Assembly: GCA_044892525.1 (NCBI GenBank)
Contig: CM097886.1
Location: 17,608,001 to 17,672,000, forward strand
Length of the DNA stretch: 64,000 bases
Direction of reading: 5' to 3'
From: Schmidtea polychroa
Taxonomy: Eukaryota
The translations under genes were made by a program, and so were the position numbers. The notes beneath the pieces were generated by a model, which had not been told where the DNA came from, ran no database searches, and worked only from the letters and a program-made list of their open reading frames with translations. The first letter of the stretch is position 1, and each line of letters opens with the position of its first letter. Shown here in pieces: positions 14,887 to 61,413 of this stretch.

Positions 14887-17800
14887 GGACAAACGACAAT
14901 GCAAAAAGTGTATTACGATCTTATACAAAATGACTGTTCATTGAATAAAGAGATACTAAAAACAAAATTAGCCATCGCAATAACACACCCAGATAACACA
15001 ATGCCATCACTCCCGTTACCGGATGGACATTTTGGTAGAATGGTGGGAGAGGTAATGTATACATATGCATGTACCAAGACATTTGCGCGACTGCCAAGAA
15101 AGCCCACAATTCCACCAGGGAAATGTGCAAACGAATTGGAAATTAGCTACAAAGGGCGGAACAGATTCGTTCAACCCGTCACTCGAATTATGAACCCAAT
15201 TGGATTTTATCCGAACACCTTTAATTGTTCAAATGCATACGGGCCATTATATGAAAAACCCGATGGGAAATGGATAATGTTACCGGTAAAAACCGAAGTA
15301 CAAGAGCCTAAAAAGTTTGGATTAATAGAACTCGCAACAGAGCAAGATTTCAAACCAATTGATGTGTCAAAAGCAGGTATGTACTCACCAGAGGATTTAG
15401 AAACAGCACGACTAAACGTACTATTCCCAGCAAGGCGAGAATCCATTCTATCGAATATGGTTACCATAACTGGGGGAACGAATTTCCAGTCAGGCCCCAA
15501 TTACGAACTATTATTGTCACCCGATCATTTTCAACAAGCCACGTCAAACATGATGAAAGCAATGTGGGAAAGATTTCTAGTGTTCGGTCAAATGATGGCA
15601 GGAATATTGGGAATCATCTTAATTATTCAGATTGTCAGAGTGATATTGACTCAAATGTTAGCGTGTTTTGATATCTATAAGAGAGAAAAGAAAGTAAATT
15701 GGAAGTTGATAGTAGGTTTTCTACCATTTTTGGCAAAAACAATGGTGTTGCACGGTCATTCTAAAGATATACACAGAATAAAACGATTAATCAAAATACT
15801 GACAAAAATAAAAGGGACTGACGAGGAGGTCGGTAGACGATTTCGGAAAACAATGTATGATGAAGCAACGAGAGCGCAACTAAAAAAGAACAAACCAAAA
15901 TTCCTAGACAGATTTAGAAATCGATCAAACAGCAGCGATAGTGATGATGATGATAACGGGAATGACAAATACCCGTATCCAAGCAGAAACCCGAACGAAA
16001 GGCAAATAGAAACAGCACCATTTTGGGAGAAAGAAAAAACAAATACCTGGATAGCCAACGGAAGTTATATACCACCAGATATCGTTGGACAACAAACAGC
16101 TTTGACCATGACACAAAATATGTATCCACAGTTACCAAGTCAACCAGGGATGAACTATATGCCGACCCGAAGAACGAAAAGTGTAGACCAAGCTGATGAC
16201 GTCAGAACAATAGCAGTAATGAGTTCACCAGGAGGAGCAGCAGTAACAGTCATGATCCAAATCAACGGGAAAGAGACAAGCGCAATGATAGATACCGGAG
16301 CAAATGTATCAGCAATAGCAATAAACCAAATACCCAGTAAATGTTGGAAAGACATCGAACAAACAACTATCCATATCATCGCATGCAGTAAAGAAACCGT
16401 AGACGTGGTAGGAAGATGGTGGACTACGTTACGATATCAAGATAATGAAATTGAAACGTATCTAGCGGTGATACCCAAACTGAGTGAACCATGTATAATC
16501 GGAACGGATTTAATGCCGGAATTGTTCAAGGAAGTAGTAATTGATTTAACAACAATGTGTCTAAAAGACAAAATGGGTAGAATATGCAAGATGAACGCAA
16601 TAATTAGATGCCCGGAGAAAATAATTGTACCCGCAAAATCACAGATGATATGTCAAATAAAAGTGGATGCAGGAATGGAAGGGGAAGTCATTTTTGAGCC
16701 AAGCAAATCATTCGAAAAACGACGAGAATTACCATTAGCAAGAGAAATAATAACAATAAATGAAGACGGGGAAATACCAATCAACATCACAAATTTCGAG
16801 GAAGAAGATAAAATCATATATGAAAATGAAAGATTGGGTAGATTGACACCCATGATAGACATCGAATTACCAAAAATCACCAACGAAACAACGAAAGCTG
16901 ACGAATTATGGATAATTGATAGCACCTTGCTAACGGAAAAAGAAAAGGAAAGACTTCAACAATTATTGATAGAATATAAAGATATATTCGCAATTTCGGA
17001 TTTAGATTTGGGAGCATGCGATGTTACATTACACGCAATACCATTAATAGACGAAACTCCAATCGCACTACGTCCATACAAACTAGCAGAGAAGCAAAAA
17101 GAGATAGCCGAAACAGAAGTACAAAAAATGCTAGATGCACAAGTGATCGAACCAAGTTGTTCGCCATGGCAATTTCCAGTAGTCATGGTGAAGAAAAAAG
17201 ATGGTACTCAGAGATTCTGTATCGATTATCGGAAACTAAATGCAGTAACAAAAAGAGACACATACCCGTTACCAGACATCAATGAGATGTTACTTATGTT
17301 ACAGGGGGCCGCATATTTTACGTCTTTAGATCTGAAAAGCGGATATTGGCAGATCAAAGTCAAGGAGGAAGACAAAGAGAAAACAGCATTCACATTGGGC
17401 CGAGATCTATACCAATTCAGGAAAATGCCATTTGGACTGACCAATGCCCCAGCATCATTTCAGAGATGTATGAATTTCGTCACGCACGGGATCAAGCAGT
17501 GTATGGTATATATTGATGATTTATTAATATATTCAGCAACATTCGAACAACATTTGGAAGACATTAGAAACGTGTTCATCCGATTACGACAATGGAAATT
17601 GAAACTCAAACCATCAAAGTGTGATTGGGCAAAAGAGAAAGTTACGTTCTTAGGACACATAGTGTCAGCAAAAGGCAAAGAACCAGACCCAAGAAACATA
17701 GAAAAAATAAAAACATGTCCAGCACCAAAAACTGTCACCCAAGTCCAAGAATTTCTCGGATTATGCGGATATTATCGAAAATTCATCAAAAACTATGCAG

Positions 17801-20800
17801 GTATTGCGAAACCAATACAGGAATTAGTGAAAAAGGATATTTCATTTATTTGGGGTGCAGAACAACAAAAAGCATTTGAGACATTGCGAGATAAATTAAT
17901 TGAAGCCCCAATACTAGTACATCCTGATTTCAAGAAACCGTTCTTATTAGCAACAGATGCAAGTGGATATGCAGCCGGAGCAATATTAGGACAACTGGAT
18001 GAAGAAGGAAAAGAAAGAGTGATTGGATACTACAGCAGAACGTTTAAAAAGCACGAGAAAAACTATTCCGTAACCGAGAGAGAAGCGTTAGCAATTATAC
18101 AAGCGATTAAACATTTTCGATATTTGTTATGGGGACACGAAATATGTATCACAACGGATCATCAACCACTAGTATGGCTTGGTCAACACAAAGAAGCTTC
18201 AAGTAGATTGATGCGATGGGCAATGCAGTTACAAGAATATTCACCGTTCATAAAATTCAAAGCGGGAAGAGCGAATGCCAATGCGGATTGTATGTCCAGA
18301 TTTATCTTTCCAGATTTAGTAGATCACGAAATGCAACGAATATGTCTGATGGTAGCAGAAGATTTAGATTTTTGCCAATTACGGAAAGACCAACAAGAGG
18401 ATACAGAGTTGAAGCAAATCATTGAGTATGTGAAAACAGGGAAAGCAGAGGTATATGAGAAAGATCAAAAATTGAAGGAGCATATGGATAAACATCGACA
18501 TCGATATATTATCGAGAAAGACTGGTTGTTGATAATGGATGGAGAAAAAAGACTGATGTGCATTCCCGAGAATAGACGTAAAGAGCTGCTAACACAATAC
18601 CATGACGGAAGACTCGGAGTACATATGTCATCTAAAAAGACGTTGGCACGAATGAAACAAAAGTATTTTTGGCCTACATTGACCGAGGATGTAACAGAAT
18701 GGGTAAAGAACTGTATAACTTGCGCGACCAGAAAAAACACGGGAACGAAATGGAAGGCACCATTAAAGCCAATGCCAGTACCAGCGGAACCAATGACAAT
18801 GCTATCAATGGACGTAGTCGGTCCACTACCAGAATCAGATAGAGGAAATATATATATATTGGTAATCACAGATTATTTGACAAAATTCCCCGAAGCATTC
18901 GCAATGGCAGATCAGAAAGCAAGAACAATCGCGAAAATACTAGTAGAGGAGATATGCTGTCGATATGGAACACCAAAACAGATATTAACTGATCAAGGAA
19001 CAAATTTCATGAGCGAAATAATGAGCGAAGTCACCAACTACTTCAAGATCGCAAAATTAAGAACATCACCGTACCATCCACAAACAAATGGTATGACAGA
19101 AAGATTCAACGGAACCTTGATCCAGATGTTATCAAATTATGTCGATCGTCATCAACGAGACTGGGATGAATATATAAAATTATGCCTAATGGCTTACAGA
19201 ATGTCGATTCACGCGTCCACAAAGATGAGTCCGTTCAAGTTGATGTACGGCAGAGAATGCAATATGCCAATGGATTTGGAGTATCAGCCACCAATATCAC
19301 AGTATATGGAAATAGATGATTATGTAACCAAGTTCAAGGAAAGAATGCAGGAAATCTGGGAAACTGCAGGATTGAATATAAAATTTTATCAAGAAAGTTA
19401 CAAAGATCTACATGATAGAAAGAAAAACGTCAAACAGCATACGTTTCAAACAGGCGACTGGGTGATGATCGAAACACCAGAATTAATTCCAGGAACCACC
19501 AAAAAATTACAACGAAACGGTAAAGGTCCGTATGAGATTCTATTCATCGGAGAAACCAATGTGAGAGTACGATTGGTAAACAACCCCTTCACGAGGCCAA
19601 TATATGTAAATGTGGCACGATGCAAGCCAATTCCGAAAACCGCCACCAGTCAGCCAGAAGGACGAACATTAACAACAAGATCACAAACGTATAGAATAAA
19701 TATGTTACAACAGATAAACGAACCAACAGGTAACCGATTGGGGTTACAACCATCAGAAGCAGAGAAAATCATAAAGGAAGTGAAAGCTAAAATGCCCGGA
19801 TGGGCAGAAGACAGATTAGATTTTGAGATATTGGGAGGTCTGCTAACAATGATCGAAAATTATGCAAACCGAGAAAGAACACACCCATTACTCAGGGTAG
19901 TAAAAAGTCAATGGCCTATATTATTTACGATCACAGACCATTATGGAGATACACCGCTGCACAAACTTTTAAAGGTCGGGAATAATGAACAAATACTGGA
20001 AACGATCGAAGCATTTCGCGACTGTAACATTTCGACGGATCAAGAAAACAACCAAGGTTACACTCCACTAATGATAGCAGCCAATCGGGATAAAGCTAAA
20101 GATATTATCATCGCATTACTTGAAACTGGGTCAAAGATAACCACACAAGACCACAACCAGAAAAATGCACTACATCATGCAATCGAAGGGAAAAGTACGG
20201 AAGCCTTCATAATCTTAGTAGATCTATTATCATATGAGGATCATAGGGAGATAGGAAACATGTATGACGGGCTATTAACTGCAATCAAAGAGAAATTAAT
20301 AACAATTGCTGGATTACTAATTGCATGGAGGAACCCGATCAAAAACGATTATATGGTAGATATAAACGAAACATTTACCAAAGGAGAAAACACCTTGATG
20401 AGAGAAGCGATGAGAGGACATCACCTATTCGAAATTCCAAATCAACTACTACAACGTGGCATAAAGTTTTCAAATCACAAAGACGAACAACTAATCAGAA
20501 AACGAATTACCAAATTCGAAAAAGCTATATCTCAATTTACCGATAAAGTACAAGTAAAATTTTGGGAAACCGTGAGTGTATTATATATGATGGAAACTAT
20601 GAACAACATTCGAGAAAACTACCTAAGTATTATTCAAGTGCTTACGGCGGAAGAACGCATTAACAGTTCAAACAAGAAAAAGATAAAAATAAAGAAAGTA
20701 AAAACAAGAGAGTCTGAGGAACAAGTCGATCAAATAATAACCGATATAGCAACAACAAGTAAACCAAAGATAATAAACTCAGACCAGGAGATAATAATAC

Positions 20801-22929
20801 GCAAAGCCAAAGAGGTGTTCTTTGAAGAAATGCGAGATTTATCTGACGAAGCAATACTATCAAAAATAACAAAAACAGTACACACCTACGCAAGAGACCA
20901 GACCACAAATCTAGACATAGAAAAAATAAAAACATTTATACCACTAGCATTCACCTTACCAACAAAAGACTCAAGAACACCATTACAACAAGCCATTTTA
21001 GCAGCAAAAGAAAACAGAGCAATAACCATCATAAGAATCCTTAGAGACTTCGGAGAAGAATCTAATGCAAAAAATGAACAAGGAGAAACAGCAATGATGT
21101 ATGCAGCCATAACAAATATACACCCGAAAACATTACATATACTACATCGATCGGGATCAAGACTGGACGAAATATCAAACGAAGGAAATTCTACCATGGA
21201 TTGGGCAACAATACAACCAAACTTGGAAATGATTAGATTCATTTGTAAAAATGCTACAAGAACTGAGGTAGAAAATATCTGTAAAAACACGTCACAGTTC
21301 CAATGGAACACGATACGGATGAACTTAGAAGCCATGAAGTTATTGCTAACATGGAAAATACCGCAAAGCAATAAATATGCAATAAATATAAATGAGTTCT
21401 ACGAAAACGGAGAAAATGCTATGGTTAAAAATACACTAACAAAAGGAGGAACTCCGAAAATCATAATGATCGTATTGAACAGAGAAGACCTCAAATTCAC
21501 GCAAAATCTAAACGAACAAAAGCGAATCGGAAAACATCGCCGTATACAATTGAGAGAACTGGTAAAAGAATGGAATAGAAAGAGACATGTAGCAACAGGC
21601 AGAAAAGAGTTTGAATTCGAAGCAAAATTAGCAAGAAATAGAGTGCTAACGGCATACCGCAGATTGTTGAATGATATAAATGTCGAGGACGACATTTTAA
21701 ACGATAGCGGGGGAGATAAAGACGATAAAGACGACGATAATAATGAAAAAGGTCGAAACGGGAATAAAGAGAAAGAGAAATCAGAGGAGAATAATCAAGA
21801 AAATAACGACGCGAGTAGGAAAAAAGAGGAAAATAACCCGGGAAACCGAATGAAGCAAGAAGAAAAGACGAATAGTGGAAAACAGAGGGTATGTCTACTT
21901 TTTACCAACAAAGAAATGGAGACAAATATGATGATAATGATACTCGTATTAACAATGGTGGAAATGATAACAGCCCAGGGAGGAATGAGAACGATAAAAG
22001 AAGCCAAAGAAACGGAAAATAAGGATAACAAAGAGGAAGAACTAAAACAAGAAAAGAAAAAACAAGTACAAGAGCAGCAATGGGATCTAAAAGAAGAATG
22101 GGATTTAAAAGAAAGGTGTATATTAGGAAGATGTATGTCTAGAGCTTATCAGAGACTAGTGTTAAAAAATGAAGATGCAGAACCAATAACGGAAGTGGGA
22201 ATACAAGAAGCGTACCAACATCGAAACGGGAAGAAGATAACAAAAGTCAAATGGAAAGAGGTACACCTGAGTAAAGGAGGGGAAATAGTGATAACACAGC
22301 TTCAACCAAGAAAAGAGCACAAAGTGTGTATTTCAAGGCTAGGCCCAGGAGAAAATTGCCTACAATATGTAACGCAACAACAACCACCAAAGGAATATAC
22401 GGTATGTATCCTGAGAAACGGTCCAGAAAGAGAATGTCGACGATACCCTGGGAAAAGAGGGAGGAAAAGAAAAATCAATGATGAAAAAGATGAGCAAGGA
22501 AAACGCAAGAAAAACAGTGAGAAACATCAAGACAATTATGTATCCGAGGAGGAGATGGAGAAAATACAAAAAATGGCAAAGGAAGGTATGAACGAGGAAA
22601 TAGCAAGAATACGAGGAATGATGAAAGGAAATGGCAAAGACGGTAATCTAAAAAGCACAGAAGCAATATCAACAATAACGAACAAGGAGAAAGCGGAAAT
22701 TATCAGCGTAAAACAGATGATGTGGATCAGCGGCATAATAATAACAGGGGCCTTTTTAATCATAACGGGGGGGACAATAAAAATAATCAAAGATAGACGG
22801 CATCGCGGAGAACTAGAAATGGCCAGAATAAGAAATTTTCAACATCGTGTAAAACGACCAAGTAATATCAAGCAGGAACAGTGGGTGGAGGCCTGGAATG
22901 CTCAGCGCCCTCCAAGCTCACGTATATAG
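14887..22929 (+). CDS. pol: E1 polyprotein, C-terminal part (same frame after the TGA; ORF-track ATG 14899): glycoprotein C-half and TM, PR, RT, RNase H, IN, ankyrin repeats, membrane tail
   Basis: IDTGA (16288), YIDD (17509-17520), LATDAS/TEREAL/TDHQPL, HHCC zinc finger and D-D-E integrase (SMDVVG, LTDQG, TERFN), GPY, and TPLH/TPLM ankyrin repeats. Confidence 0.95.
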   Translation, partial: GQTTMQKVYYDLIQNDCSLNKEILKTKLAIAITHPDNTMPSLPLPDGHFGRMVGEVMYTYACTKTFARLPRKPTIPPGKCANELEISYKGRNRFVQPVTRIMNPIGFYPNTFNCSNAYGPLYEKPDGKWIMLPVKTEVQEPKKFGLIELATEQDFKPIDVSKAGMYSPEDLETARLNVLFPARRESILSNMVTITGGTNFQSGPNYELLLSPDHFQQATSNMMKAMWERFLVFGQMMAGILGIILIIQIVRVILTQMLACFDIYKREKKVNWKLIVGFLPFLAKTMVLHGHSKDIHRIKRLIKILTKIKGTDEEVGRRFRKTMYDEATRAQLKKNKPKFLDRFRNRSNSSDSDDDDNGNDKYPYPSRNPNERQIETAPFWEKEKTNTWIANGSYIPPDIVGQQTALTMTQNMYPQLPSQPGMNYMPTRRTKSVDQADDVRTIAVMSSPGGAAVTVMIQINGKETSAMIDTGANVSAIAINQIPSKCWKDIEQTTIHIIACSKETVDVVGRWWTTLRYQDNEIETYLAVIPKLSEPCIIGTDLMPELFKEVVIDLTTMCLKDKMGRICKMNAIIRCPEKIIVPAKSQMICQIKVDAGMEGEVIFEPSKSFEKRRELPLAREIITINEDGEIPINITNFEEEDKIIYENERLGRLTPMIDIELPKITNETTKADELWIIDSTLLTEKEKERLQQLLIEYKDIFAISDLDLGACDVTLHAIPLIDETPIALRPYKLAEKQKEIAETEVQKMLDAQVIEPSCSPWQFPVVMVKKKDGTQRFCIDYRKLNAVTKRDTYPLPDINEMLLMLQGAAYFTSLDLKSGYWQIKVKEEDKEKTAFTLGRDLYQFRKMPFGLTNAPASFQRCMNFVTHGIKQCMVYIDDLLIYSATFEQHLEDIRNVFIRLRQWKLKLKPSKCDWAKEKVTFLGHIVSAKGKEPDPRNIEKIKTCPAPKTVTQVQEFLGLCGYYRKFIKNYAGIAKPIQELVKKDISFIWGAEQQKAFETLRDKLIEAPILVHPDFKKPFLLATDASGYAAGAILGQLDEEGKERVIGYYSRTFKKHEKNYSVTEREALAIIQAIKHFRYLLWGHEICITTDHQPLVWLGQHKEASSRLMRWAMQLQEYSPFIKFKAGRANANADCMSRFIFPDLVDHEMQRICLMVAEDLDFCQLRKDQQEDTELKQIIEYVKTGKAEVYEKDQKLKEHMDKHRHRYIIEKDWLLIMDGEKRLMCIPENRRKELLTQYHDGRLGVHMSSKKTLARMKQKYFWPTLTEDVTEWVKNCITCATRKNTGTKWKAPLKPMPVPAEPMTMLSMDVVGPLPESDRGNIYILVITDYLTKFPEAFAMADQKARTIAKILVEEICCRYGTPKQILTDQGTNFMSEIMSEVTNYFKIAKLRTSPYHPQTNGMTERFNGTLIQMLSNYVDRHQRDWDEYIKLCLMAYRMSIHASTKMSPFKLMYGRECNMPMDLEYQPPISQYMEIDDYVTKFKERMQEIWETAGLNIKFYQESYKDLHDRKKNVKQHTFQTGDWVMIETPELIPGTTKKLQRNGKGPYEILFIGETNVRVRLVNNPFTRPIYVNVARCKPIPKTATSQPEGRTLTTRSQTYRINMLQQINEPTGNRLGLQPSEAEKIIKEVKAKMPGWAEDRLDFEILGGLLTMIENYANRERTHPLLRVVKSQWPILFTITDHYGDTPLHKLLKVGNNEQILETIEAFRDCNISTDQENNQGYTPLMIAANRDKAKDIIIALLETGSKITTQDHNQKNALHHAIEGKSTEAFIILVDLLSYEDHREIGNMYDGLLTAIKEKLITIAGLLIAWRNPIKNDYMVDINETFTKGENTLMREAMRGHHLFEIPNQLLQRGIKFSNHKDEQLIRKRITKFEKAISQFTDKVQVKFWETVSVLYMMETMNNIRENYLSIIQVLTAEERINSSNKKKIKIKKVKTRESEEQVDQIITDIATTSKPKIINSDQEIIIRKAKEVFFEEMRDLSDEAILSKITKTVHTYARDQTTNLDIEKIKTFIPLAFTLPTKDSRTPLQQAILAAKENRAITIIRILRDFGEESNAKNEQGETAMMYAAITNIHPKTLHILHRSGSRLDEISNEGNSTMDWATIQPNLEMIRFICKNATRTEVENICKNTSQFQWNTIRMNLEAMKLLLTWKIPQSNKYAININEFYENGENAMVKNTLTKGGTPKIIMIVLNREDLKFTQNLNEQKRIGKHRRIQLRELVKEWNRKRHVATGRKEFEFEAKLARNRVLTAYRRLLNDINVEDDILNDSGGDKDDKDDDNNEKGRNGNKEKEKSEENNQENNDASRKKEENNPGNRMKQEEKTNSGKQRVCLLFTNKEMETNMMIMILVLTMVEMITAQGGMRTIKEAKETENKDNKEEELKQEKKKQVQEQQWDLKEEWDLKERCILGRCMSRAYQRLVLKNEDAEPITEVGIQEAYQHRNGKKITKVKWKEVHLSKGGEIVITQLQPRKEHKVCISRLGPGENCLQYVTQQQPPKEYTVCILRNGPERECRRYPGKRGRKRKINDEKDEQGKRKKNSEKHQDNYVSEEEMEKIQKMAKEGMNEEIARIRGMMKGNGKDGNLKSTEAISTITNKEKAEIISVKQMMWISGIIITGAFLIITGGTIKIIKDRRHRGELEMARIRNFQHRVKRPSNIKQEQWVEAWNAQRPPSSRI

Positions 22930-23097
22930 AAAGGATTATGACTGTATATAGATTGTAAAAAGTAAGTAGGTAATATTTATTTATATAACAGTACTCGATA
23001 TTTTTATATAAGCGCGGTATCAATAGTATATAATGATGGGGATAATTAATATGAAAATAAAATTAGATAAGGATTGAAAAGTATATATAAATTAAGA

Positions 23098-23457
23098 ATG
23101 GAACGAATAGGCGAGGAAGTAAATCACAGTACGACAACCGAGGAGATGTGGAAACAACAATGTGCAATGTTAACTCAAGTGATTTCGAATTTACAGGAAC
23201 AAGGACTCGCTGTACAAAGAAGCTTAGTCGAAAGTTTAAATAAAGGCTTCAGTTATGTAAGAATAATCGAAGACCAACGAATAAAAATAGAACAAATGCA
23301 GCGAGAGATAGACCGAATATCACGATACAGCCAGGTGCAAGAAGAGGAGTTAATAAGAATCGCGGAAGAGATGGAGCGAGAGGAGATAGAAGACTGGTCA
23401 GAATGGTTAACCAGCAGGGAAGAGGGCGGACAAGAGGCCGACTCTTCCAGCCAATAA
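23098..23457 (+). CDS. Small acidic coiled-coil accessory protein (119 aa from first ATG)
   Basis: Conserved with E2 43856-44215 (WKQQCA.L.Q..SNLQEQGL, EDWSEWL); the ORF track starts at a TTG, first ATG is 23098. Confidence 0.75.
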   Translation: MERIGEEVNHSTTTEEMWKQQCAMLTQVISNLQEQGLAVQRSLVESLNKGFSYVRIIEDQRIKIEQMQREIDRISRYSQVQEEELIRIAEEMEREEIEDWSEWLTSREEGGQEADSSSQ

Positions 23458-23546
23458 ATATAACCTAAAATAGCAATGTAAATAACTGTAAATAAAAATA
23501 CGAAACTGTACCAGTAACGAATATATGTATATATATAATTATAGAA

Positions 23547-24935
23547 ATGGATAAGCGACAACGAGAAGAATTCAAAGAAATTGTTGAACAAGTCAGAAAG
23601 TCCACCACAATTCGAATACACAACCATGTAACGTGTGGAATATGCAAGAGCTTATTAAGAGAACCTCACCAAACCAGATGTGGATGCAGAATGTGCAGAG
23701 AATGTGTAGAGGAGATAATAAAGAAGGGACCACAATGGTGCCCAGTATGCAAAGAAACAATGATAACAAGTCTGGGAGATACAAACGAAGATAAAGCAGC
23801 TGTAAAAGATATGTTGAATGCAAACCTAGGATGTAAAAACACCCCATGTAATTGGCGAGGAGTGATATGGGAAGTGAGGCAACATATGGAGCAATGTGAA
23901 TATAAAATCAGTCAATGCAAACGTTGCCAAGAAGAGATTAAAGTCAATGAAGAAGCAGAACATCAAAGTCGATGCGAAGAAAGACTGGAGAAATGTGAGT
24001 ATTGCGGAGAAACCGACACCTGGAAAAAACTAATCAGTCAACATCACAACATACAAGAGGAGAAAGTGTGCGCAGAATTCAGAGGAGAATGCCCCAACAA
24101 ATGCGATAAACCCGGAGTAATAAAACTCGCTCAACATCTAAAAGAATGTGAAAGAAAAAAGATAACGTGTGTGCTAGGAAAATGGGGATGTCAGAAACAA
24201 TTACACCGAGGGGAATTACCCCAACATCTAGCAGAAAACGTATCAACACACGCGGAAATATGGTCAACGGTATTACAAGAAAACGAAAGGAAAACCGAAG
24301 ACTTAGAAAGAGAAATAGTCTCGCTAAAAGCGTTGGTAAAAGAACTATTGGAAGAAAAGGAAGCATTTGAAGAGGCAAGAACAAGTACAAAGATACAGAC
24401 AGATCTAGTAGAAACTAGCAACATTATGGTGAAAGAACTACATCAAAAAGTAAGCGAATTAAACCTCAACGAATTAATACCCACGGCTCCATACATATGG
24501 AAAATAACGGGAGTAAAAGAGAAGATGCAGAGAGCGAGAAATGGAAAGGATACAACATTACTAAGTCCAGCATTCTACTCATGGAAAAACGGGTATAAAA
24601 TGAAAATGAAAGCATACCCCAATGGGGATGGAAGTGCATACGGAACGCATTTCTCAGTATTCTTCTTGATGTGCAAAGGGCTATACGACGAGTTAATAGA
24701 ATGGCCATTCAAAGCAAAAATAGACCTCGCAATGATGAACTATCAAAGTATACATGAACAGAGTTTCCATACAGCGGGAAACCTCGTATGTTACCAAAGG
24801 CCCTTGGAAGAAGAAGGACCAGCAACTGGAGCACCGAATTTCATCCTACAGCGGAAAGTAGAAGACATGACGAGAAACGACACCATATACATAAAAATAG
24901 TGGTGAGGCGAGACGGGAAGAGTAGGACTGAGTAG
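23547..24935 (+). CDS. TRAF-like protein (RING, TRAF zinc fingers, coiled coil, MATH domain), 462 aa
   Basis: N-terminal RING CGIC...EP.QT.CGC..C..C...CPVC; repeated CxxC..H..C fingers; MATH motifs YIWKITG, SPAFYS..NGYKM, YPNGDG..GTH.S.F, EWPF. Confidence 0.92.
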   Translation: MDKRQREEFKEIVEQVRKSTTIRIHNHVTCGICKSLLREPHQTRCGCRMCRECVEEIIKKGPQWCPVCKETMITSLGDTNEDKAAVKDMLNANLGCKNTPCNWRGVIWEVRQHMEQCEYKISQCKRCQEEIKVNEEAEHQSRCEERLEKCEYCGETDTWKKLISQHHNIQEEKVCAEFRGECPNKCDKPGVIKLAQHLKECERKKITCVLGKWGCQKQLHRGELPQHLAENVSTHAEIWSTVLQENERKTEDLEREIVSLKALVKELLEEKEAFEEARTSTKIQTDLVETSNIMVKELHQKVSELNLNELIPTAPYIWKITGVKEKMQRARNGKDTTLLSPAFYSWKNGYKMKMKAYPNGDGSAYGTHFSVFFLMCKGLYDELIEWPFKAKIDLAMMNYQSIHEQSFHTAGNLVCYQRPLEEEGPATGAPNFILQRKVEDMTRNDTIYIKIVVRRDGKSRTE

Positions 24936-25152
24936 AGAGACGAATAATTTTGTATATACTAATTGTAAATATCGGCATATATACCCCGTAAAATATTATA
25001 TAGTAGTGTAGAAAATTCCCCCGAATCTAATAAAGGTAAACTTAAGCGAAAACTCCTAAACCAACTCCTATAACGAATTGTAAAAATAAATAAAAACTAA
25101 GCCAAATATAAGCGTACAACGTTGAGTTAATGATATCGTTATTTAGACAAAG

Positions 25153-26190
25153 ATGACTCCAGATCAAACGGAAGCCCCAAATAACGAAATAAACATCAGT
25201 AGAATACATAGAGAAAGATGGGCCAAAGTAATGATACAATTATCAAACCAAACACGAAATTACCTCGAAGAAGCGAGAGAATGGGAAAACCACCAATTCC
25301 AGTGGTTAGTACAGAATTTACGGGCGGAGGCCGAGGCCTGCAAAAGAGCCGCCAAATGGTCGGCATTAGAAAATACCAGGCAAGAGGCGCACGGGCACTA
25401 CCTGAAGCAGCTAGTACAGGAGTCAAGAAAAAGACTAACGGATGAGAATAAGAAGCGGGAAATAGAAAAACAAAAGGAGGAAAGAAAAACCCGCCAACTA
25501 TTAACAGAAGCCAGAAAGTGGAAAAAACAACATCGAGAAATCCAAAAAGAGATGAGAGAATTGCCGCGAAGATTGGAACACGAGAGTGATCAAGGGAAAT
25601 GGGAAGAAAACCTGGATCAGAAAGAAGAGCTAAGAAGGCTCCGGAAAGTAGCAGCTAGAAGTCAAACCTGGCAGACCAAGGCCATGGAATTTGAAAGGCA
25701 TCTGGCCATGAAACTGTCCATGAAGGAACAGGAGAATACCGCCATGGAAGAGATGATCCTGCAACAGTCAGGTAGAATCGTCGAACTCGTAAACAAGGTG
25801 GCAGATCTTGAAAGAGACAATAACGGCTATAAGGGGGCACTAGAACAAAGAAATATAGTGCTAGCCGGTAAGAACAAGAAATTGGAAAACGAGAGAAAGA
25901 TGTATGACGAAAATATCAAGAACCTCGAAAAGGAGATCAAAAAATGGGAGAACGGCGAAAAAGCGGAGGAGTTAGAAAAACAGATCGAGGTAAGGGACGA
26001 CGAAACCAGGTATCTAACATACCTGTTGGACGAGGAACTCAACGTGTCAAGAGCACTAAGAGACGAAGTTCAGGAGCTCAGAGCGCAGATTCCCCGGTAC
26101 TACATCCCATTCGATCCCATCGCAATCCAACTACAAACGTCAATAGACAGCGATGAAGGGTATGTAGGCCAGGAAGAAACCTTTGTATAA
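25153..26190 (+). CDS. Long coiled-coil accessory protein (345 aa)
   Basis: Intact and heptad-rich; ortholog at E2 41134-42189 with near-identical C-terminus (DSDEGYVGQEETFV). Confidence 0.8.
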   Translation: MTPDQTEAPNNEINISRIHRERWAKVMIQLSNQTRNYLEEAREWENHQFQWLVQNLRAEAEACKRAAKWSALENTRQEAHGHYLKQLVQESRKRLTDENKKREIEKQKEERKTRQLLTEARKWKKQHREIQKEMRELPRRLEHESDQGKWEENLDQKEELRRLRKVAARSQTWQTKAMEFERHLAMKLSMKEQENTAMEEMILQQSGRIVELVNKVADLERDNNGYKGALEQRNIVLAGKNKKLENERKMYDENIKNLEKEIKKWENGEKAEELEKQIEVRDDETRYLTYLLDEELNVSRALRDEVQELRAQIPRYYIPFDPIAIQLQTSIDSDEGYVGQEETFV

Positions 26191-26362
26191 AGATAAGGAG
26201 AAAAGATAAAAAATATAAAAAGCGGGACCTGTATCCCAACAAAAAAATTATTAGTACGATAAAAATATTTACGGGACTGTAACCCTGATTATATAAAATT
26301 ACCTATAAATGTATAAGTATAAGCCGCACTGTAGCGCACTATTAATTGTAAATATTGTAGAA

Positions 26363-27073
26363 ATGAAAATAGAAGAAATATCCACCATGACCGAGCTAGA
26401 GGAGGGAGAAATCGAAGTTGAGGAAGTGGAGAGGAAGAAAACTATCAAAGAAGAATTACAAGAAGAGAAACAAGAAAACGAAAGATTAGTAGAAAGGTGG
26501 AGAGATAATCGAAAAATGATTAAAGTATTGAAAAGAGAATACACCTTGCTAGAAGAAGTAAAGAAAGAAGTAGAGGAAGAAAATGAATGGCTTCACGAGC
26601 AAAGAAAGCGAGGGAGAAATTGGGAAAAGATCGCGGAAGAATTATGGCAGGAAAGAGCCAGTCTCAAGGCTAATGAAGTGATTGAAGATTACTGGAAAAC
26701 GGAAGCGAGGAAACGACAAGAAACTATCAGGGGTCTAGAAAACCAGCTGGGAGTAAAAGTACAGGAAAGTGCAGAAATGGAGAAATGGATCAATAAATAC
26801 CGAGAAATAGAAATAAAACGGCTGAAACAAAGTCCAAAGACGAACGACCCAGAAGAAAATGATTTCCTACAATTGGAGCTGGAACGGAACTTGGAGGAGA
26901 AAAAGAAGGAGATAAAAACCTTGAAAAGAGAGATAAAACACTTGACGGACAAGGTCCAAGAGAAAGATAGGCAGCTCGAAATGTTGCCGGAACTCCGACA
27001 TAGGGTCATTAAAGCAGAATCTAAATTAATGAGAATCCGAGAAAGAGACCCTAAAAAGAAACGACAAAATTAA
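26363..27073 (+). CDS. Coiled-coil accessory protein (236 aa from MKIEE)
   Basis: Ortholog E2 40266-40964 starts MKIEE, so 26363 is the likely start; shared ENEWLHEQRKRG.NWEKIAEELW. Confidence 0.8.
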   Translation: MKIEEISTMTELEEGEIEVEEVERKKTIKEELQEEKQENERLVERWRDNRKMIKVLKREYTLLEEVKKEVEEENEWLHEQRKRGRNWEKIAEELWQERASLKANEVIEDYWKTEARKRQETIRGLENQLGVKVQESAEMEKWINKYREIEIKRLKQSPKTNDPEENDFLQLELERNLEEKKKEIKTLKREIKHLTDKVQEKDRQLEMLPELRHRVIKAESKLMRIRERDPKKKRQN

Positions 27074-27132
27074 AACCAACAAAAAGCGATGTATATAAAT
27101 ATGTATAAAATAACTAAATGTATATCAGTATC

Positions 27133-27792
27133 ATGAGAAGCCAACCGATCATTGTAACGCTGATGATGATGATAATTCTTGATCTAACACGACGACAGCC
27201 AGTGAAACCCCAAATCGAACGGGTTCGAGACAACAGAAAACCCAATCAGAAAATCGAACCAACAACCCCATCGTGCACCTGCTCAAATGCCATAAGAACC
27301 AATCTTATCAATAACCTTCGAGCAACCCGAAACTACATCAACAACATCAGAATTATGTGTAATCACAACCCTATGTGTAAAATCATCGATAAAAGAATTC
27401 TGGACCAAATTCACCAAGTCGATCAATTAGAACAGCAAGTCCAACACCAAGAAACACAAAACCCACCCGATCAAGTAAAAAGCCCGAATGAAATAAACCA
27501 CACCTATGAACTCCTCTATGTGGTAATCGCCGAGACCACCTTAATCACAATAGTCACCCTGCTAAAAATCTATAACCTCTGCAAAGTTTGGAAGAAAAGT
27601 CACCCCGTATCAGAAAGATCATCTCGAAGGTCCCAAGAAGCTAACATGGCTGAAGTAATCCAAGAAAACCTCCGTCAACGAACCTCCATCGCAGAAACAG
27701 TCAGACCATCCGCAAGTCGCCGAATATACTACAACATCGAACCCCAACAACCAAATCTCCCATCATCAACGGCAACTGAACAACACACATAA
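27133..27792 (+). CDS. Putative type I membrane protein (signal peptide, Cys-containing ectodomain, TM, polar tail)
   Basis: Hydrophobic N-terminus, conserved C...MC..NP.CK.I, and TM LLYVVIAETTLITIVTLLKIY; ortholog E2 39569-40210. An upstream ATG at 27118 is also possible. Confidence 0.75.
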   Translation: MRSQPIIVTLMMMIILDLTRRQPVKPQIERVRDNRKPNQKIEPTTPSCTCSNAIRTNLINNLRATRNYINNIRIMCNHNPMCKIIDKRILDQIHQVDQLEQQVQHQETQNPPDQVKSPNEINHTYELLYVVIAETTLITIVTLLKIYNLCKVWKKSHPVSERSSRRSQEANMAEVIQENLRQRTSIAETVRPSASRRIYYNIEPQQPNLPSSTATEQHT

Positions 27793-28046
27793 CACTTCGA
27801 ACTGTAACTATTGACAAAATTCTTGATGTTTCATTGTTTTATGATAAAACCGGTCACCTTAAGTGACCACTGCTTGCTTATATTTGTCATTTTCTCTGTT
27901 TAATTAAAGTATTTTTTTTGTTGTTAATTTGATTTTAGGTCTGTGTGAATTTTGATGGTGAGATTAGGTGTCATACCGAAAGAAAGTATGATTTGAATGT
28001 ATTATGTGAATTGCGGGGCGCAATTTTAACGGGCCCCGGAGTGATT

Positions 28047-31000
28047 TGTTGGGCTAAATTTCAGAGTGGAGAAAACTGGAGCGAATAGAAAAGTAAACCT
28101 CGAATAATAAATAAGATAAAAATATAAAAATCTCACTAGTAAATAGAAAGGAACGATAAAAAATCAATAAGAGAATAAGATAAGGTAAAACAAACTGAAT
28201 AAAACCCAATAAATCCCTTAAGATTTAGAAATAAAACGAGTTAAAACACACAACGGATAAAATAGAAATAGAATAAGTAAAAAAGTGACAACAAATAAAC
28301 GAGAAATTTAAGAAATAAATAAAAAATAAACCATTTTAAGTCTAATTAAAACAAAAAATAATATTACAATAAAATAACAATAAGTCCGCAGAAAAATAGA
28401 AGAGAAAATAATAAAAATAAGAAAAAATAAATAAAATAATAATAAGAATAAGCCAAGCCATTAAAAAAATTTAATATACGATGATAAAAACATAAAAATA
28501 ATAATAAATAGTAAAAATACAAACGAGTCGCGTCCTGATTGGACAGAAAATAATATATAAAGAGCGACAAAAATCTGTAGAGTATCATTCTAACCCGAAA
28601 CTCTACAGGTAAAAATTCATTTAAAATATTATCAATCATTCTAACCCGAAACTCTACAGGACTTCAGGACCACTTAGCAGCTATTAGAACTCGTTTACGA
28701 AGCAATCCTACAAAACTACTTACAGCCGATAAGCCATTTTAGACTACTGGTTAAGAGCCTACGGAAAGTATCGAGAACTTAGACGACTTTATTATTCTAT
28801 TCGATCCAGTTTTAAACTCAAAGGTATGCATTCGATTGATATTATGAATAGTTATTTGCTGTAAAAATGTTGAAAATAATGAAAAGCAGAATAAATTTTA
28901 TTCAATAAATTTAATTTGAAATGAACAGCAGCCTTTTTCTTCATGGTACCGGCCACTGCACTATCTGGGACCTTCAAGCATGATGCGGCAGAGCGAAAAT
29001 GCGTTGCGAAAGGGTTTGCGAGTATGCATTGCGACGAAGGGACGATATCAGTCGATTTTCGAAGTTGAAGAAGAATTGAGGAAATTGTCCAGTACGAAGG
29101 GACATGCATCTGAATGGCTCGGAAGACATCATGCTTGGAACCCAGCTGGTGGGGTCGCCGGGTAAATCTGATTTATTCATTTTATGTGTTTTACAAAATT
29201 TTTCCATTAATGTCGGAGTTGATTTTGGAATTGCTTGAATAGAGGAGTTGATCGTCTCCCATGACGGTGCAAGGACGGCGGCAGAAATGAGTGCCGTTCT
29301 TGGGTGGGTCATGAGAGGTGAGGAAACTCCGTGAGTCGAAGTATAGCTGAAGAGTGAAATTTCCTTCATCGAGTGCGATCGACCACCGCTATCGTCGAAA
29401 ATACACTTCTTAAAAGAGTAGTCGCGAAGATGAAATCATGAGAAACTCCAGGAGATCGTCGAATCAAAATCTTTTCACATTACATCCAGTCGCCGTTAAT
29501 CGCATTGGAAAGTTAGAGTCCATGTCGTATATCCCTCGGGAAATTGGCACGAGAATATCTGGTGATTGGGGATCTATAGCTGCGTAAAAAATCCAATGTT
29601 GTTCACAGAGAATGTCATAGAGCCCGAGATCTTCTAGAATACACATCGCCAGGACATTTACGACGAAACCCATAGTCAGTGTACTTTTGAGTTAGATTGT
29701 TGGTTATGAGGCCACTGATAAGCCTAGATTTTCTGAGAATAAAACAAACAAATCACGAGAAATTATCGGAATATTTACGATCGGCGTTAGAGAAACCGCA
29801 GTCGAATTTATCAGAAACTGTCAAACTAATTTCAGACAGATTATTATTCACCGGATTGTATGACTGAGGAAAACCTGACGAAGAGCGAGAGCGATAATCG
29901 TCTCTGCAATAGGTTTAGTGAATGCGTTGATAGAGAGATGTCTAAGAGTTGATAACGACTAGAGTAAATCATCAGTTCTGACCCGCTAGTGAATTGTCGC
30001 GTAATGATTGGGTGGATACTTCTAACCAATCTCCCAGACAACTGAATCTTGATAATCCGTCTCATTTACACACTATCGGGAAATTCTTTTTCAGTAGACG
30101 GCAATTTATTCTAAATCTTAAATGGTTATGTGACACAATCGTGACGTAACAACGAGGGAGTTAATCGAGAAAATACTACTGTGTGCACAGGCGAAAGAAA
30201 GAGTTCACGCGCGTAAAGGCAGACACCCACTCTTAAACTACCATTCGAAGCAAACACGTCACCAAAACTGATTCACATGCTAGGGACAAATAACAACACT
30301 TTAGTATGCATTTTCATATATTGAATTATGTGCCGCCTTTAAACGAAAGACGATATTTTAATACAACCACATATTACGCAACGTCGTCATGACAACCTCA
30401 CGGCGAAAATTTAAATAAAACTAAAAATCATAAGTTAAGTCAATAGGGAACCAAAGATATTCTGCTGTTAATTTTTTCCCTTTTTCCTATTTTATTTTAT
30501 CTATTTGAACTACTTTAATATAACATAACGAGGTCTATTGAATATCGAATTTTTCTTTTATAATACTACTCGGTTTAGTTGTGTAGAACGTAGTAATGAG
30601 GAGTAAAATCGCAAACATCAGATAATGATAAGTAGAATAAAAGGGTTAGTCTTGTTAGTACTAGACTGAACAAGCATGAAAAGGGGAATAGTCAAACTCA
30701 TAACACGTACCGATTGTAAAATGATGACAAATAAATTATGTCTAGAATTTTCGTTTTCTTCTCGTCAGGTGTTGATGGTTGAGGGGATGAATTTGAATGT
30801 TTAAAACTGGATGAATGTGGGTGCCGACTGATAATTTGGGCGTTTGAATCACTACTGAATGGTTTGATTTCGAAAAAAGGGAACCTCATATGTAAAAATA
30901 GGAATAAAATCCTAGCCAATAAATTTTGTAAAATTAACAATGAAAGATTCTATAAACTCTTTAGATGAATACCTCTACCAGCTCTGGAAAAAATCTTCGC

Positions 31001-32251
31001 CCGTGTCTCTTCTGCGCCGATAAAAACGCAGATATCGCGCAGCTCCACTTATACATCGGGGCACTGAAAAAGAGAATTGATCTCTACGAAGGCACGTGGT
31101 TCTCCCCGCCACAAATGCAAGAGGAACGCAAGAAAATTCTCCGATTAGAGCATTGCAGGGACAGCCTGCTAGAGGAAAGCCGTTGCCAGCGGCTCACTAT
31201 CAAAGCACAATCGGAAGCCCTCCATAAGGTATATACGGAGGCAGAATTGGCCAAACGGGTCCGAGAATTTCCCGTCATCGAGAAGACCAATGTCTTCCCA
31301 CCTCACCATCAGGCCTCCCAATCAACTTCAACAAGCTGCCAAAGGCATGGTACCTATCTGCCGCCCGTCCCGGCTCCAACCTTATCGAGTTATCAACCCT
31401 TGGTCGGTGGACCTACCGATCCCATCTTGGCTCCAATCTTGGTGGCACCAATCGGCACCGCGAACGTGGAAAACCCTCCGTCTACTCGCAAACGGAAACG
31501 GCCAACTCGAGCCGAGAAGAATAAAAAACGCCGAGATGCGATGGCCGCACTCGAAGCGTCGCTATCGGTAGCCCAATCCACCATAAAGGAAATCTCTTCC
31601 AGCCATTCAATTCCAACGAAGGAAATTTTCCGTGTAATTCCCGCAGAGGGCATCAAATACGTCTCTAACCAACAATTGCCGGTCGACATCGACGAGATGC
31701 TTGCCGATGGGGAGTCCTTTGACTGACAGATTTCCATTGCCTTGATTCGGCAAGATTCGGAAGCGGACTTGAGTGTTTGTGAATATTGAACATTTATTTT
31801 TGTGACAGCCCCTTTTCCTTGTTATAAATGTAATTATTGTTGTGGATGTAATATAATTTTTATTGTCTCTCGGTGATTGTTTTTGGCATGCATGATATGG
31901 GATTAAAAGTGAACAATAGGACGATATCAGATATAGGTAGCACTACAGAGTCGTCCCCTTGGACCAGGGAAGGACCGAATGATGTGTAGAGGAACGGGTA
32001 AGACCTTCTACGGCGCCATGGAACCCGAACCGAGACAGGGTTAGGAGTAGTCTTAAGGCAGAGGCTCACCTGCTAACCTTTTCCGACCCGTGTGAGCAGC
32101 ACCAACGTGGAACATCACCACGGGCTCATACGTGGGAATATGCATTCGATCATCTGGTGTATGTATGGGAAGTGCCTGAGCGGAACGATGACGCCTTGTA
32201 TGAGTGAAGGTTGCGCGTGCATAATTTTTCTCTTCCCCACATACGCCAACA
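28047..32251 (+). repeat. E1 3' LTR (4,205 bp)
   Basis: Direct repeat of 1489-5693, followed by the TSD TGAG. Confidence 0.97.
30965..31726 (+). CDS. LTR-encoded 253-aa protein, 3' LTR copy
   Basis: Translation identical to 4407-5168. Confidence 0.8.
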   Translation: MNTSTSSGKNLRPCLFCADKNADIAQLHLYIGALKKRIDLYEGTWFSPPQMQEERKKILRLEHCRDSLLEESRCQRLTIKAQSEALHKVYTEAELAKRVREFPVIEKTNVFPPHHQASQSTSTSCQRHGTYLPPVPAPTLSSYQPLVGGPTDPILAPILVAPIGTANVENPPSTRKRKRPTRAEKNKKRRDAMAALEASLSVAQSTIKEISSSHSIPTKEIFRVIPAEGIKYVSNQQLPVDIDEMLADGESFD

Positions 32252-35178: not shown

Positions 35179-35712
35179 TGTTGGGGTTACACCTCGGCTG
35201 ACCGCTCTACCATATTGACGGGTCTAAGGGTTGATTGTCCATCTCGAATAAAAGGTGCCACCGATTTGTCAACCTGGAGTGAAACCCCACATAACTTTCT
35301 TCCAACATAGTGCCCGTGAATCACTTCACGTTGGTACTGCACTATGCAGGCGAGACACCAGCAAGCAGGTGAGCTTCTGCCTTAAAACTACTCCTTGCTG
35401 AGGCCTCGACTTCCCATTCACGACTGCCGATAGAAGGGCTTACGTCCATTTCCTTACACAACCACTTATCAGGATTCGCTGAACGCAAATTGGGAATTTC
35501 TCACTAGATCCTGCGGGTTCTCTACTCAACCCACTTAATTAAAGTCTAATTATTCATGAACGAAAACGTGTAAGACAACAAGATTTATTAATTTCAACGT
35601 TATGACACAAGGATTCAGCTGTACACTTTACTAATGTTTGTCGAAAGAAGAGAAAACATCATAATCAACATAGATCGGGTCCTTGTTCTTCATCCTGACC
35701 GCCACTGGGGTT

Positions 35713-36465
35713 CTATTGTTTCTCCCATTCAGCGTCGGCGAATAATTCGTCGAGGTTAAAAAACTCGGAAGCGTTCTCTTCCCACGTTACGCCAGCGGCT
35801 GATATGATTCGTGCTGAGGGTCCCGTTGTTAGGTCGATGGACACGTGAGAGTTACCACCGTTGGTTGAATCCTCTATTGATGGGATGTTTGGCTTTGTAG
35901 TGGCGCGTTCGCGCTGTCTCTTCTTGCGCTCTGCACGAGAGAGTTGTTTGCGCTTGGGTTTGCTTGAAGATGCCACTTGCAGAAGGGTGACAGGTACAGA
36001 TGGACTAGCAGTGGGGGGCTTACTGGTACCCGTGATGACAACATCTGGTCGCTTGGGGGACAATTCGTTTTCGACGCAGTCTCGGCACGGTCTCTTGAAC
36101 GGTGGAGATGGATTCGAGGAAAGGTTGTGATGAGGCGGAAAGATGTCATCGGCCTCTCGGATGGGAATCTGCACAATTTTTCGGGTTGTAACCGCCTGCA
36201 TGTAAACCTTATGCAGTGCCTCGGATTGTTCTCTGATTAGACTTCTTTGGGCACGGCTCTCAGATATTAGCGCGTCCCGGCAATGCTCGCTACGATCGAG
36301 CTTCTTTTGGATCTCCTTCATCCGAGCGGGACTAAACCATGTCCCTTCCAGCTCGTCGATTTTTCGTTTATATCGACCGATCTGGGCTTGAAGATCTTTA
36401 ATCACTGCATTTTTATCTGAGCAGGAGAAGCAGGGACGTAGAGCTGATTTGTTGTTTGATAACAT
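35713..36465 (-). CDS. LTR-encoded 250-aa protein, E2 3' LTR copy
   Basis: Homolog of the E1 LTR ORF; TTCTTTAG acceptor 10 nt before the ATG; AATAAA downstream (35584-35589). Confidence 0.8.
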   Translation of the reverse strand: MLSNNKSALRPCFSCSDKNAVIKDLQAQIGRYKRKIDELEGTWFSPARMKEIQKKLDRSEHCRDALISESRAQRSLIREQSEALHKVYMQAVTTRKIVQIPIREADDIFPPHHNLSSNPSPPFKRPCRDCVENELSPKRPDVVITGTSKPPTASPSVPVTLLQVASSSKPKRKQLSRAERKKRQRERATTKPNIPSIEDSTNGGNSHVSIDLTTGPSARIISAAGVTWEENASEFFNLDELFADAEWEKQ

Positions 36466-38870: not shown

Positions 38871-39002
38871 CTATGAAATGCTCGGGGTTAACAGTAAACA
38901 ACAGTAAACATTTTTCTTACCTATGAAATGCTCGGGGTTAACAGTAAATTTAATGTTTTTGGTAGTTGTATATATATCAAATTCTTATTTGTGCGGACCA
39001 AT
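38871..39002 (-). promoter_or_regulatory. E2 LTR promoter with leader exon, donor and 50-nt intron
   Basis: CTGATTGG (CCAAT at 38998-39002), TATATATA ~38969-38977, ATAG|GTAAGA at 38921/38920, acceptor TTTCATAG at 38871. Confidence 0.65.
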
Positions 39003-39568
39003 CAGAGTTGAGTACCGCTTATTTCTATTAATTTAATATAATTTTCTTGTTTTTAGGTTGTTTTTTCCTTATTTTCTTTATTTTTAATATGTTTTTCTAT
39101 TTATTTCCTTAATTTCCTTATTATTTCTTGAATTCCTCTTTATTTATTTGTCAACTTGTTCTATTTTAATCTTTTCTTAATTTTATTTTTTTTTTGTTTT
39201 AATTCTTATGTCTTACTTATTATTTTCCTTATATCTTATTCTATTTTATTTCTGATTTTATTTATTTTATTATTATTTTTCTTAATGTTCTACTTCCCTA
39301 CTTTCCTATTTTTCAACGATTAAATTTTCGACTCAGCCCAACAAATCACTCGGGGACCCATCAAAATTGCGTCCCGCAATTGCATAATTAACTTAATTCA
39401 TTCATTCAAAAAAAATATAACACGAACACGGAAAATTATACAACAATGATAAAAATTTTATTGTAAGATCAAGGTCAAAGCAAGACCAAGCAAGTATCAC
39501 TTAAGGTGATAGTTTGTACATACAATAAAAGTTTCCACATATAATAACACAAATGTTTGAATTAGAGT

Positions 39569-61406: not shown

Positions 61407-61413
61407 AAAATCA

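Follow-up and report, generated by a model that had tools for sequence, protein, structure and literature searches.

Candidate splice acceptors ahead of the accessory genes of Burro-like giant Ty3/gypsy elements in Schmidtea polychroa

The 64,000-nt stretch of Schmidtea polychroa DNA analyzed here (contig CM097886.1, positions 17,608,001 to 17,672,000 of GenBank assembly GCA_044892525.1, which is 781 Mb in size; hereafter the window, in whose coordinates positions are given) contains two opposed giant long terminal repeat (LTR) elements of the Burro/GYPSM1-like Ty3/gypsy type, E1 on the + strand and E2 on the − strand. E1 is a provirus of 30,763 bp (1489..32251, +), with 4.2-kb LTRs at 1489-5693 and 28047-32251 that have TG...CA ends, show three differences and are flanked by a 4-bp target duplication. 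E2 (35179..64000, −) shares this layout and is ~79% identical to E1 over 18.9 kb; its 3′ LTR occupies 39343-35179 and its 5′ LTR extends beyond the window. In both elements gag, env and pol plus ankyrin repeats lie in one reading frame. The E1 polyprotein (9055..22929, +) runs in the order Gag, class III fusion protein (env), protease (PR), reverse transcriptase (RT), RNase H (RH), integrase (IN) and ankyrin, with this copy broken by a stop at 14884-14886, while that of E2 is disrupted near its C-terminus (45820). The fusion protein of both elements is of the Monjiviricetes type, and the mononegavirus-like env domain (PF24664) sits between gag and PR in the 4136-aa open reading frame (ORF) of E2. 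To these are added a leader RING gene, an LTR-internal ORF and five genes behind pol, one of them TRAF-like. The start codons of this accessory set lie a few bases behind AG dinucleotides that we consider probable splice acceptors.

An earlier note on this DNA had claimed that every accessory ATG of E1 stands 0–10 nt behind an acceptor-like AG, that all seven E2 orthologues keep an AG at the same place, and that expression might proceed by cis-splicing from an LTR leader, by spliced-leader (SL) trans-splicing or from internal promoters. The first two statements hold throughout. In E1, the LTR ORF (4407-5168, +; the copy in the 3′ LTR starts at 30965) directly follows AG 4405-6 (acceptor 4399..4406, +; 3′ LTR copy AG 30963-4), and the leader RING gene (6155-6634, +) lies 2 nt behind AG 6151-2 (acceptor 6145..6152, +). 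Behind pol, all on the + strand, follow a1 (119 aa, 23098..23457), 1 nt from AG 23095-6; the TRAF-like gene (RING + MATH, 462 aa, 23547..24935), 2 nt from AG 23543-4; a3 (345 aa, 25153..26190), 6 nt from AG 25145-6; a4 (236 aa counted from 26363, 26363..27073), 2 nt from AG 26359-60; and a5 (219 aa with a hydrophobic N-terminus, 27133..27792), 4 nt from AG 27127-8. Pfam gave nothing above its cut-off for a1, a3, a4, a5 or the LTR ORFs. The 3′ cluster acceptors of E2 (40210..44219, −) have their AGs at 44219-8 (a1), 43773-2 (TRAF), 42193-2 (a3), 40968-7 (a4) and 40216-5 (a5), and those of the RING gene and the LTR ORF (61071..62711, −) at 61075-4 and 62711-0 (copy 36476-5); the E2 distances to ATG, in the order LTR ORF, RING, a1, TRAF, a3, a4 and a5, are 9, 2, 2, 1, 2, 2 and 4 nt.

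The note had also proposed a comparison of YAG-ATG frequency (Y, pyrimidine) with shuffled spacers, which we carried out for E1 with shuffles of the 60 nt upstream of each start. A bare AG within 10 nt is a weak signal (7/7 against 3.6 expected, P = 0.0075) and YAG a stronger one (6/7 against 1.73 expected, P = 0.001); TNYAG occurs at 5/7 starts, with 0.54 expected (P = 5e-5). The 331 internal Met codons of the polyproteins served as a control: YAG precedes 92 of them by 10 nt or less and 40 by 3 nt or less. Five of the 14 chosen ATGs are not the first in their frame (ATGs at 26309 and 27118 in E1 and at 43800, 42243 and 40225 in E2 lie upstream), so that the choice of ATG may have been biased. 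Homology supports the chosen starts, since the upstream extensions of a3, a4 and TRAF are confined to one element each, and a distant family starts a5 at the equivalent Met. The gag ATG of E2 has no such AG site, which leaves the statement about every accessory gene true. Among fetched copies of the E1 family the AGs of a1, TRAF, a3 and a4 are kept in 10/10, with exchanges of TTTAG for TTCAG and of TGTAG for TATAG, though these copies share 91–100% identity and hence add little.

Replication outside the window comes from a distant family, F5, found by a MATH-domain search. F5 carries a 4791-aa ORF plus an extra BIR-RING gene, and its accessory proteins are 26–33% identical to those of E1 over most alignments. 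With the first ATG of each ORF taken mechanically in loci L071/L073, all eight F5 accessory starts lie 0–3 nt behind an AG; in a copy of the same family, L075, the a4 ORF contains another ATG 18 nt before this one. AG also precedes the single 3′ gene of a fourth family, F6. For the F5 and F6 starts together, AG lies within 3 nt at 9/9 (2.4 expected) and YAG at 8/9 (0.97 expected, P about 1e-7). The F6 gene, the lone post-pol gene of this fourth env-bearing family (L103 7692-6265, −), has a clear acceptor 2 nt ahead of its ATG and encodes a 475-aa protein with a motif similar to that of a DEDDh exonuclease, with no Pfam hit above cut-off. In three copies of family F3, no post-pol accessory ORF of 95 aa or more was found.

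For the LTR ORF, a degenerate pattern of its protein matched 727 places, 30 of which were fetched and formed 24 LTR clusters. Its acceptor was scored in 21 of the 24 clusters; one more falls outside the scoring window, though an AG is visible 7 nt before an ATG. The presence of 24 clusters among 30 loci suggests frequent LTR exchange, and in F5 near-identical internal regions are paired with at least two LTR types whose U5 is highly diverged (L072, L076 vs L071, L075). Over the 45 acceptor sites compiled, position −3 is Y in 43 and G in 0, and position −5 is T in 39, which matches the flatworm acceptor consensus UUNYAG (PMC12582326). Host TRAF exon starts, read by eye, fit the same shape, with apparent AAG cases among them. 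The acceptor stands at anything from −1 to 18 nt from the start codon, which ties the pattern to the AG rather than to a Kozak position. On their shape and conservation, then, the AGs may be read as the earlier note read them, and they are very probably functional splice acceptors, whichever donor serves them.

The LTR gene of F5 bears on the choice of donor. The F5-like LTR homologue of the 4407 ORF, here called ORF2, has no ATG at the position of the E1/E2 Met1 and begins AG|TG in 7/7 lineages; the distance from AG|TG to a conserved Glu codon is 107 nt in all five lineages scored. Across the AG, identity is 59–90% on the exon side, with a third-position excess, vs 16–53% just upstream (20/21 pairs). 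Most differences, beginning with the first codon, are at third codon positions, and the 44 codons before the first Met hold 21 silent and 11 residue-changing differences. N|TG is the sole open frame, at 88–157 codons against 0–45 in the frame set by an SL ATG, and it is stop-free in the best 150 of 5536 candidates. As there is no ATG and coding conservation begins at the AG, ORF2 needs one upstream base, that is, a phase-1 partner. An ATA|GTAAG donor lies 78–84 nt after the TATA in 3/3 F5 LTR types with the promoter region seen, and since its exon ends in A, cis-splicing would create an A|TG start. In two of these three types the frame of a leader ATG stays open for 37 nt and enters the donor in phase 1. 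A fusion of the upstream LTR ORF1 to ORF2 was dropped, as no conserved phase-1 donor lies inside ORF1.

Comparable donors follow the LTR promoters of the other families. The E1 promoter (1980..2003, +) consists of a reverse CCAAT box at 1980 and a TATA at 1996, with RNA probably starting near 2025; the same pair occurs in E2, L174 and L176. Its candidate main leader donor, AAG|GTATGC (2263..2272, +; GT at 2266; 3′ LTR copy 28824), is preceded by ~242 nt with no ATG and followed by AATAAA 66 and 80 nt on. The E2 leader donor is ATA|GTAAGG (38688..38698, −; GT 38695, TATA 38976), and a first donor stands 56 nt after the TATA. Overall, a donor is present 78–281 nt after the TATA in 7/7 LTRs with the TATA region seen; in E1, E2, L174 and L176 it lies 213–281 nt behind the CCAAT/TATA promoter and is succeeded by an AT-rich tract with AWTAAA, a hexamer found 49–149 nt after the donor in 6/7 LTRs. 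For the donor survey 11 LTR stretches were fetched, of which three included the TATA region and eight missed it, LTR lengths being variable. The leaders of E1 and L174 are free of ATG (0 vs 3.3 and 2.3 expected), and that of E2 has one ATG, inside a candidate mini-intron. In E1 this putative 51-nt intron (2051..2101, +) would lie between two copies of a ~25-nt unit, and E2 has the same layout. The unit is doubled just after the TATA in three LTR types of unrelated sequence (2027-2102, +; 38945-38871, −; L176 ~1215-1300), with GT following the first copy and AG ending the second; it is absent from L174 and F5.

Of the three expression modes put forward in the earlier note, we favor cis-splicing from the LTR leader, on account of the donors in 7/7 LTRs and the phase-1 need of F5 ORF2. 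As judged from these features, the accessory genes are probably expressed by alternative cis-splicing of one LTR transcript from the leader to each acceptor, maybe via more than one leader exon. A single 5′ LTR promoter would give one long RNA with a short leader exon (~50 nt in F5, ~185–250 nt in E1/E2-like LTRs) ending at the donor 78–281 nt past the TATA, well upstream of the primer-binding site. The leader would be joined to one of seven (E1/E2) or nine (F5) acceptors a few bases from a start codon, and every accessory gene would thereby head a separate mRNA as its first ORF; one LTR gene of F5 would obtain its Met codon (A|TG) from the junction. The unspliced RNA would be the genome, spliced RNAs devoid of the primer-binding site would go uncopied, and a PUF-type site 14–23 nt after the stops would then tune the resulting mRNAs. 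Acceptor shape and conservation, the exon boundary, donor position and phase fit are seen in the DNA; splicing itself, the donor-acceptor pairs, transcription start sites, poly(A) sites and any PUF binding are inferred. The primer-binding site (5697-5715, +), which resembles tRNA-Pro, is identical in E1 and E2, although the LTRs of the two elements do not align by BLASTN.

Several observations weigh against this proposal. The 3′ cluster would need introns of 20–25 kb that bypass many donor-like sites. The L176 leader has three ATGs before its donor, and the leader ATG of F5a is stop-closed and out of phase (3/3 stretches). The AG|TG of ORF2 doubles as an in-frame GTG in unspliced RNA; a GTRAG-like site ~950–1060 nt before ORF2 in four of seven F5-like lineages has an exon ending in G and would yield G|TG; the long U5 regions contain several other GTRAG-like sites, which makes the donor-acceptor pairing tentative; and E2-like donors end in A without requiring it, so the A may be ancestral. 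As for the acceptors, that of E1 a1 is AAG and not YAG, as is that of F5 a5, and two of the 24 LTR clusters (L140, L148) have no AG. Finally, the 45 sites are non-independent through common descent, which makes P-values optimistic; at four of the 45 an upstream YAG was chosen although another AG lies closer, and 16 LTR distances were assigned manually.

The same acceptors could instead serve an operon-like cluster resolved mainly by host SL trans-splicing. Flatworm cis and trans acceptors have one shape and are often shared (PMC12582326), and the spacers, at 55–217 nt, are near the ~100-nt operon spacing of Macrostomum (PMC8629364), so that a short intercistronic distance and an acceptor are both present. 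Moreover, the mRNA of the gypsy element Cer1 is both SL1 trans-spliced and cis-spliced (PMC3315495). The SLs reported from flatworms, on which this comparison draws, however, all end in ATG (PMC12582326), and such an ATG would be out of frame with F5 ORF2 in 7/7 lineages. It would be in frame at only 7 of 24 sites, which is the chance level. An SL operon would be expected to have no upstream cis donor, and donors are present in 7/7 LTRs; poly(A) hexamers (AWTAAA), for their part, are at background in the spacers (13/16 vs 12.2 expected). The SL option offered in the earlier note therefore fails for F5 ORF2 and is possible for other genes. As the main route we judge it unlikely, while low-level SL use beside cis-splicing is quite possible.

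Cis-splicing from the leader must also be set against an internal promoter in the spacer ahead of each gene, as in foamy viruses, with the AG being part of the start context or the end of a short local intron. The five E1 spacers (all +) are pol–a1 (22930..23097), with TGTATATA at 22943, a donor-like GTAAGT at 22962 that is kept in E1 and E2 only, and acceptor AG 23095-6 (AAG); a1–TRAF (23458..23546), with TGTAAATA at 23477 and 23487 and acceptor AG 23543-4; TRAF–a3 (24936..25152), with TGTAHATA at 24951 and 24964 and acceptor AG 25145-6; a3–a4 (26191..26362), with acceptor AG 26359-60 and, in both E1 and E2, no TGTAWA close to the stop; and a4–a5 (27074..27132), with TGTATATA at 27090 and acceptor AG 27127-8. 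TATAAG-like words in three of these spacers, the conserved GTAAGT, the resemblance of TGTAAATA to a forkhead site and the purine that AG|NN|ATG places at −3 would all suit local promoters. The TATATAAG-like spacer motifs mentioned in the earlier note do exist, but over 16 spacers (E1, E2 and F5/L071) compared with shuffle expectation the promoter motifs scanned are at background (TATAWA 11/16 vs 11.0, CCAAT 2 vs 3.3, GTRAG 2 vs 4.4; promoters of other types could escape such a scan), while the true LTR promoter has CCAAT plus TATA. The T at −5 and the Y at −3 track the AG and not the ATG, and an internal promoter is unable to give F5 ORF2 an ATG. We regard this explanation as quite unlikely.

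What is enriched in the spacers is TGTAHATA, found in 15/16 against 2.0 expected. TGTAWA occurs in the first 45 nt of 14/16 spacers (3.6 expected), starting 14–23 nt past the stop and often twice. The fifth base is variable (TGTA-A/T/C-ATA), and the position is fixed to the upstream stop rather than to the downstream ATG, which argues against a promoter function. The E1 coding sequence (18,033 nt) contains no TGTAHATA, and the TGTA motif is not found at the post-stop position behind the E1 LTR ORF, RING or a5. The spacer motif matches the PUF consensus UGUANAUA (PMC5855632), which suggests a Pumilio/PUF role for these sites. We dropped a CFIm/poly(A) interpretation, since planarian poly(A) signals reportedly have no UGUA upstream of them (PMC5068929).

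A further alternative to direct cis-splicing is an SL made by the element itself: a short capped LTR RNA (leader, donor and a poly(A) signal 50–150 nt on) would be trans-spliced onto each cistron of a 30-kb operon-like transcript. Such an RNA agrees with the AWTAAA 49–149 nt after the donor in 6/7 LTRs, fits the A|TG phase no less well than cis-splicing and makes 25-kb introns unnecessary, and LTRs are abundant, with 5536 first-look candidates. Rfam, however, returned no match in 1400-9200, the AWTAAA may simply serve as the usual poly(A) signal of the 3′ LTR and is common in such AT-rich sequence, and no precedent for an element-made SL was found in the literature searched. This arrangement is very unlikely; if true, LTRs genome-wide would be SL-like donor genes supplying the A of the start codon, and the Pumilio sites after stops would clear upstream cistrons. 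That chance, or the picking of ATGs behind AGs, produced the pattern is hardly credible: although a bare AG within 10 nt has a probability of about 0.3–0.7 per site and the five non-first ATGs leave room for selection, the mechanically chosen F5 and F6 starts reproduce the pattern out of sample, the internal-Met control has YAG within 3 nt at only a small share of codons and conservation has a sharp boundary at the AG, so that this rival is largely refuted.

Traces of spliced products were sought in several ways. Assembled contigs X1, X6 and X7, whose RNA nature is a guess, together with X3 were compared with 12260-32254, a stretch that covers six acceptors and leaves the RING acceptor and the gag leader outside; among the 15 of 46 joints and 24 of 811 loose ends listed, there was no GT..AG joint and no end at a covered acceptor. 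Contig joints 22952-23520 and 23788-27224 point to relatives lacking a1 or with TRAF to a5 deleted, and their ends are not GT..AG. The depth of X6 drops after 22931 and 28934, a weak hint at 3′ ends on which we do not rely. Spliced DNA copies were sought as the first E1 donor unit with a base other than G behind it; the two hits each have a single changed base and are spaced like the two LTRs of one element. F5 ORF2 with non-G before TG gave no hit vs 257 places with G at up to one mismatch. Processed copies are not expected if spliced RNA has no primer-binding site, and the copies are also young. No leader-fused form turned up in protein databases, where the queries gave no hit apart from one for a3 and one for ORF2 (P0002, which looks genomic).

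The joining of one leader to alternative acceptors just before start codons is the practice of HIV-1, foamy viruses and the adenovirus major late unit. In foamy viruses the donor lies upstream of the primer-binding site, as does the candidate here, unlike in HIV-1. At the level of sequence, the elements have the layout of complex retroviruses, in which a single LTR promoter and a 5′ donor are combined with acceptors ahead of the accessory starts. In contrast to those viruses, the present elements belong to Ty3/gypsy, and nothing in their DNA establishes an internal promoter, a Rev-like factor or a separate poly(A) site for each gene. Within Ty3/gypsy, the env of the springer subclade of Drosophila errantiviruses has a start codon completed by a splice junction (bioRxiv 10.1101/2023.08.03.551782), which is similar in that a subgenomic RNA arises by cis-splicing and the start codon is built at the junction; for the Burro-like elements, cis-splicing and, in F5, the split start codon are predictions from DNA. 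Springer, however, splices one gene (env) with an AU|G junction, whereas the Burro-like elements have 7–9 acceptors, a predicted A|TG junction (F5), env within the polyprotein and one or two targets within the LTR. Cer1 of C. elegans (PMC3315495) is likewise a gypsy element whose host practices trans-splicing; it exploits splice sites of the host, which have to be bypassed when genomic RNA is made. It makes one spliced mRNA from within gag-pol, however, with and without SL1, and has no accessory cistron array.

Burro/GYPSM1 elements are planarian gypsy-like giants of >30 kb that have LTRs, an in-frame env separating gag from pol, and MATH/TRAF, ankyrin and accessory ORFs (PMC6431247). E1 resembles them as a 30,763-bp Ty3/gypsy LTR element with PR-RT-RH-IN order and env in frame, and of their cargo, TRAF and ankyrin occur in E1/E2 and BIR only in F5, in its BIR-RING gene. 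Compared by published description, E1 and E2 differ in having TRAF as a gene of its own on the 3′ side, a shorter polyprotein and, as far as found, no BIR gene. The accessible description of Burro is confined to domains and mentions neither splice sites nor how the accessory genes are expressed, and "splic" has no occurrence in PMC8532177. The Burro family and subgenomic splicing in gypsy elements and retroviruses are already known; an array of 7–9 acceptors in Ty3/gypsy, some of them in the LTR, a split start codon and stop-anchored PUF-type sites were not found in the literature searched (top-ranked matches, with most subscription papers outside its scope).

Burro elements fill planarian genomes, show increased RNA in animals with piwi knocked down (PMC8532177) and carry regulators of apoptosis and ubiquitin (TRAF, IAP, RING), and how genes 20–25 kb from a single promoter are translated is not addressed in the Burro literature examined. 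The present result supplies exact, testable junctions. It would imply a Ty3/gypsy element with 7–9 alternative acceptors, a start codon built by splicing and a donor whose place ahead of the primer-binding site excludes spliced RNAs from replication; if true, this would be convergence on the gene control of complex retroviruses by an element whose host uses SL trans-splicing as well. Through the PUF-type motif anchored at the stops, the cargo would be tied to a regulator on which planarian stem cells depend (PMC5855632).

The leader and the TRAF genes gave some additional observations. The gag leader of E1 has conserved donor-like (8351) and acceptor-like (AG 8387-8) sites (8351..8388, +), 38 nt apart and 667 nt ahead of the gag ATG, with an E2 counterpart at ~58819-58782. 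An ATG-less, protein-conserved open frame of 103–120 codons precedes the gag ATG in E1 (8695-9054), E2 (58575-58231) and F5, and gag itself may be spliced or begun at a non-AUG codon. About 155 nt of the gag leader (8487-8643) are missing in 15 of 40 scored E1-family copies, with ends that are not splice sites. A 73/74-nt tandem repeat in the leader (7225-7744, +, and 59479-60050, −) has a donor-like GTAAG in each unit and is ~95% alike between E1 and E2 despite diverged flanks. The genome has at least 92 TRAF copies that scored as intact or nearly so. Intron-less full-length TRAF-like ORFs at L041-L044 and L046 (frames of 454–473 aa) are ~31% identical to the element TRAF where aligned and stand beside a large family of intron-bearing host TRAFs. 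Finally, in L090 (2-3436) the env-side polyprotein frame continues directly into TRAF; this is an internal deletion derivative whose remaining 3′ cluster is intact.

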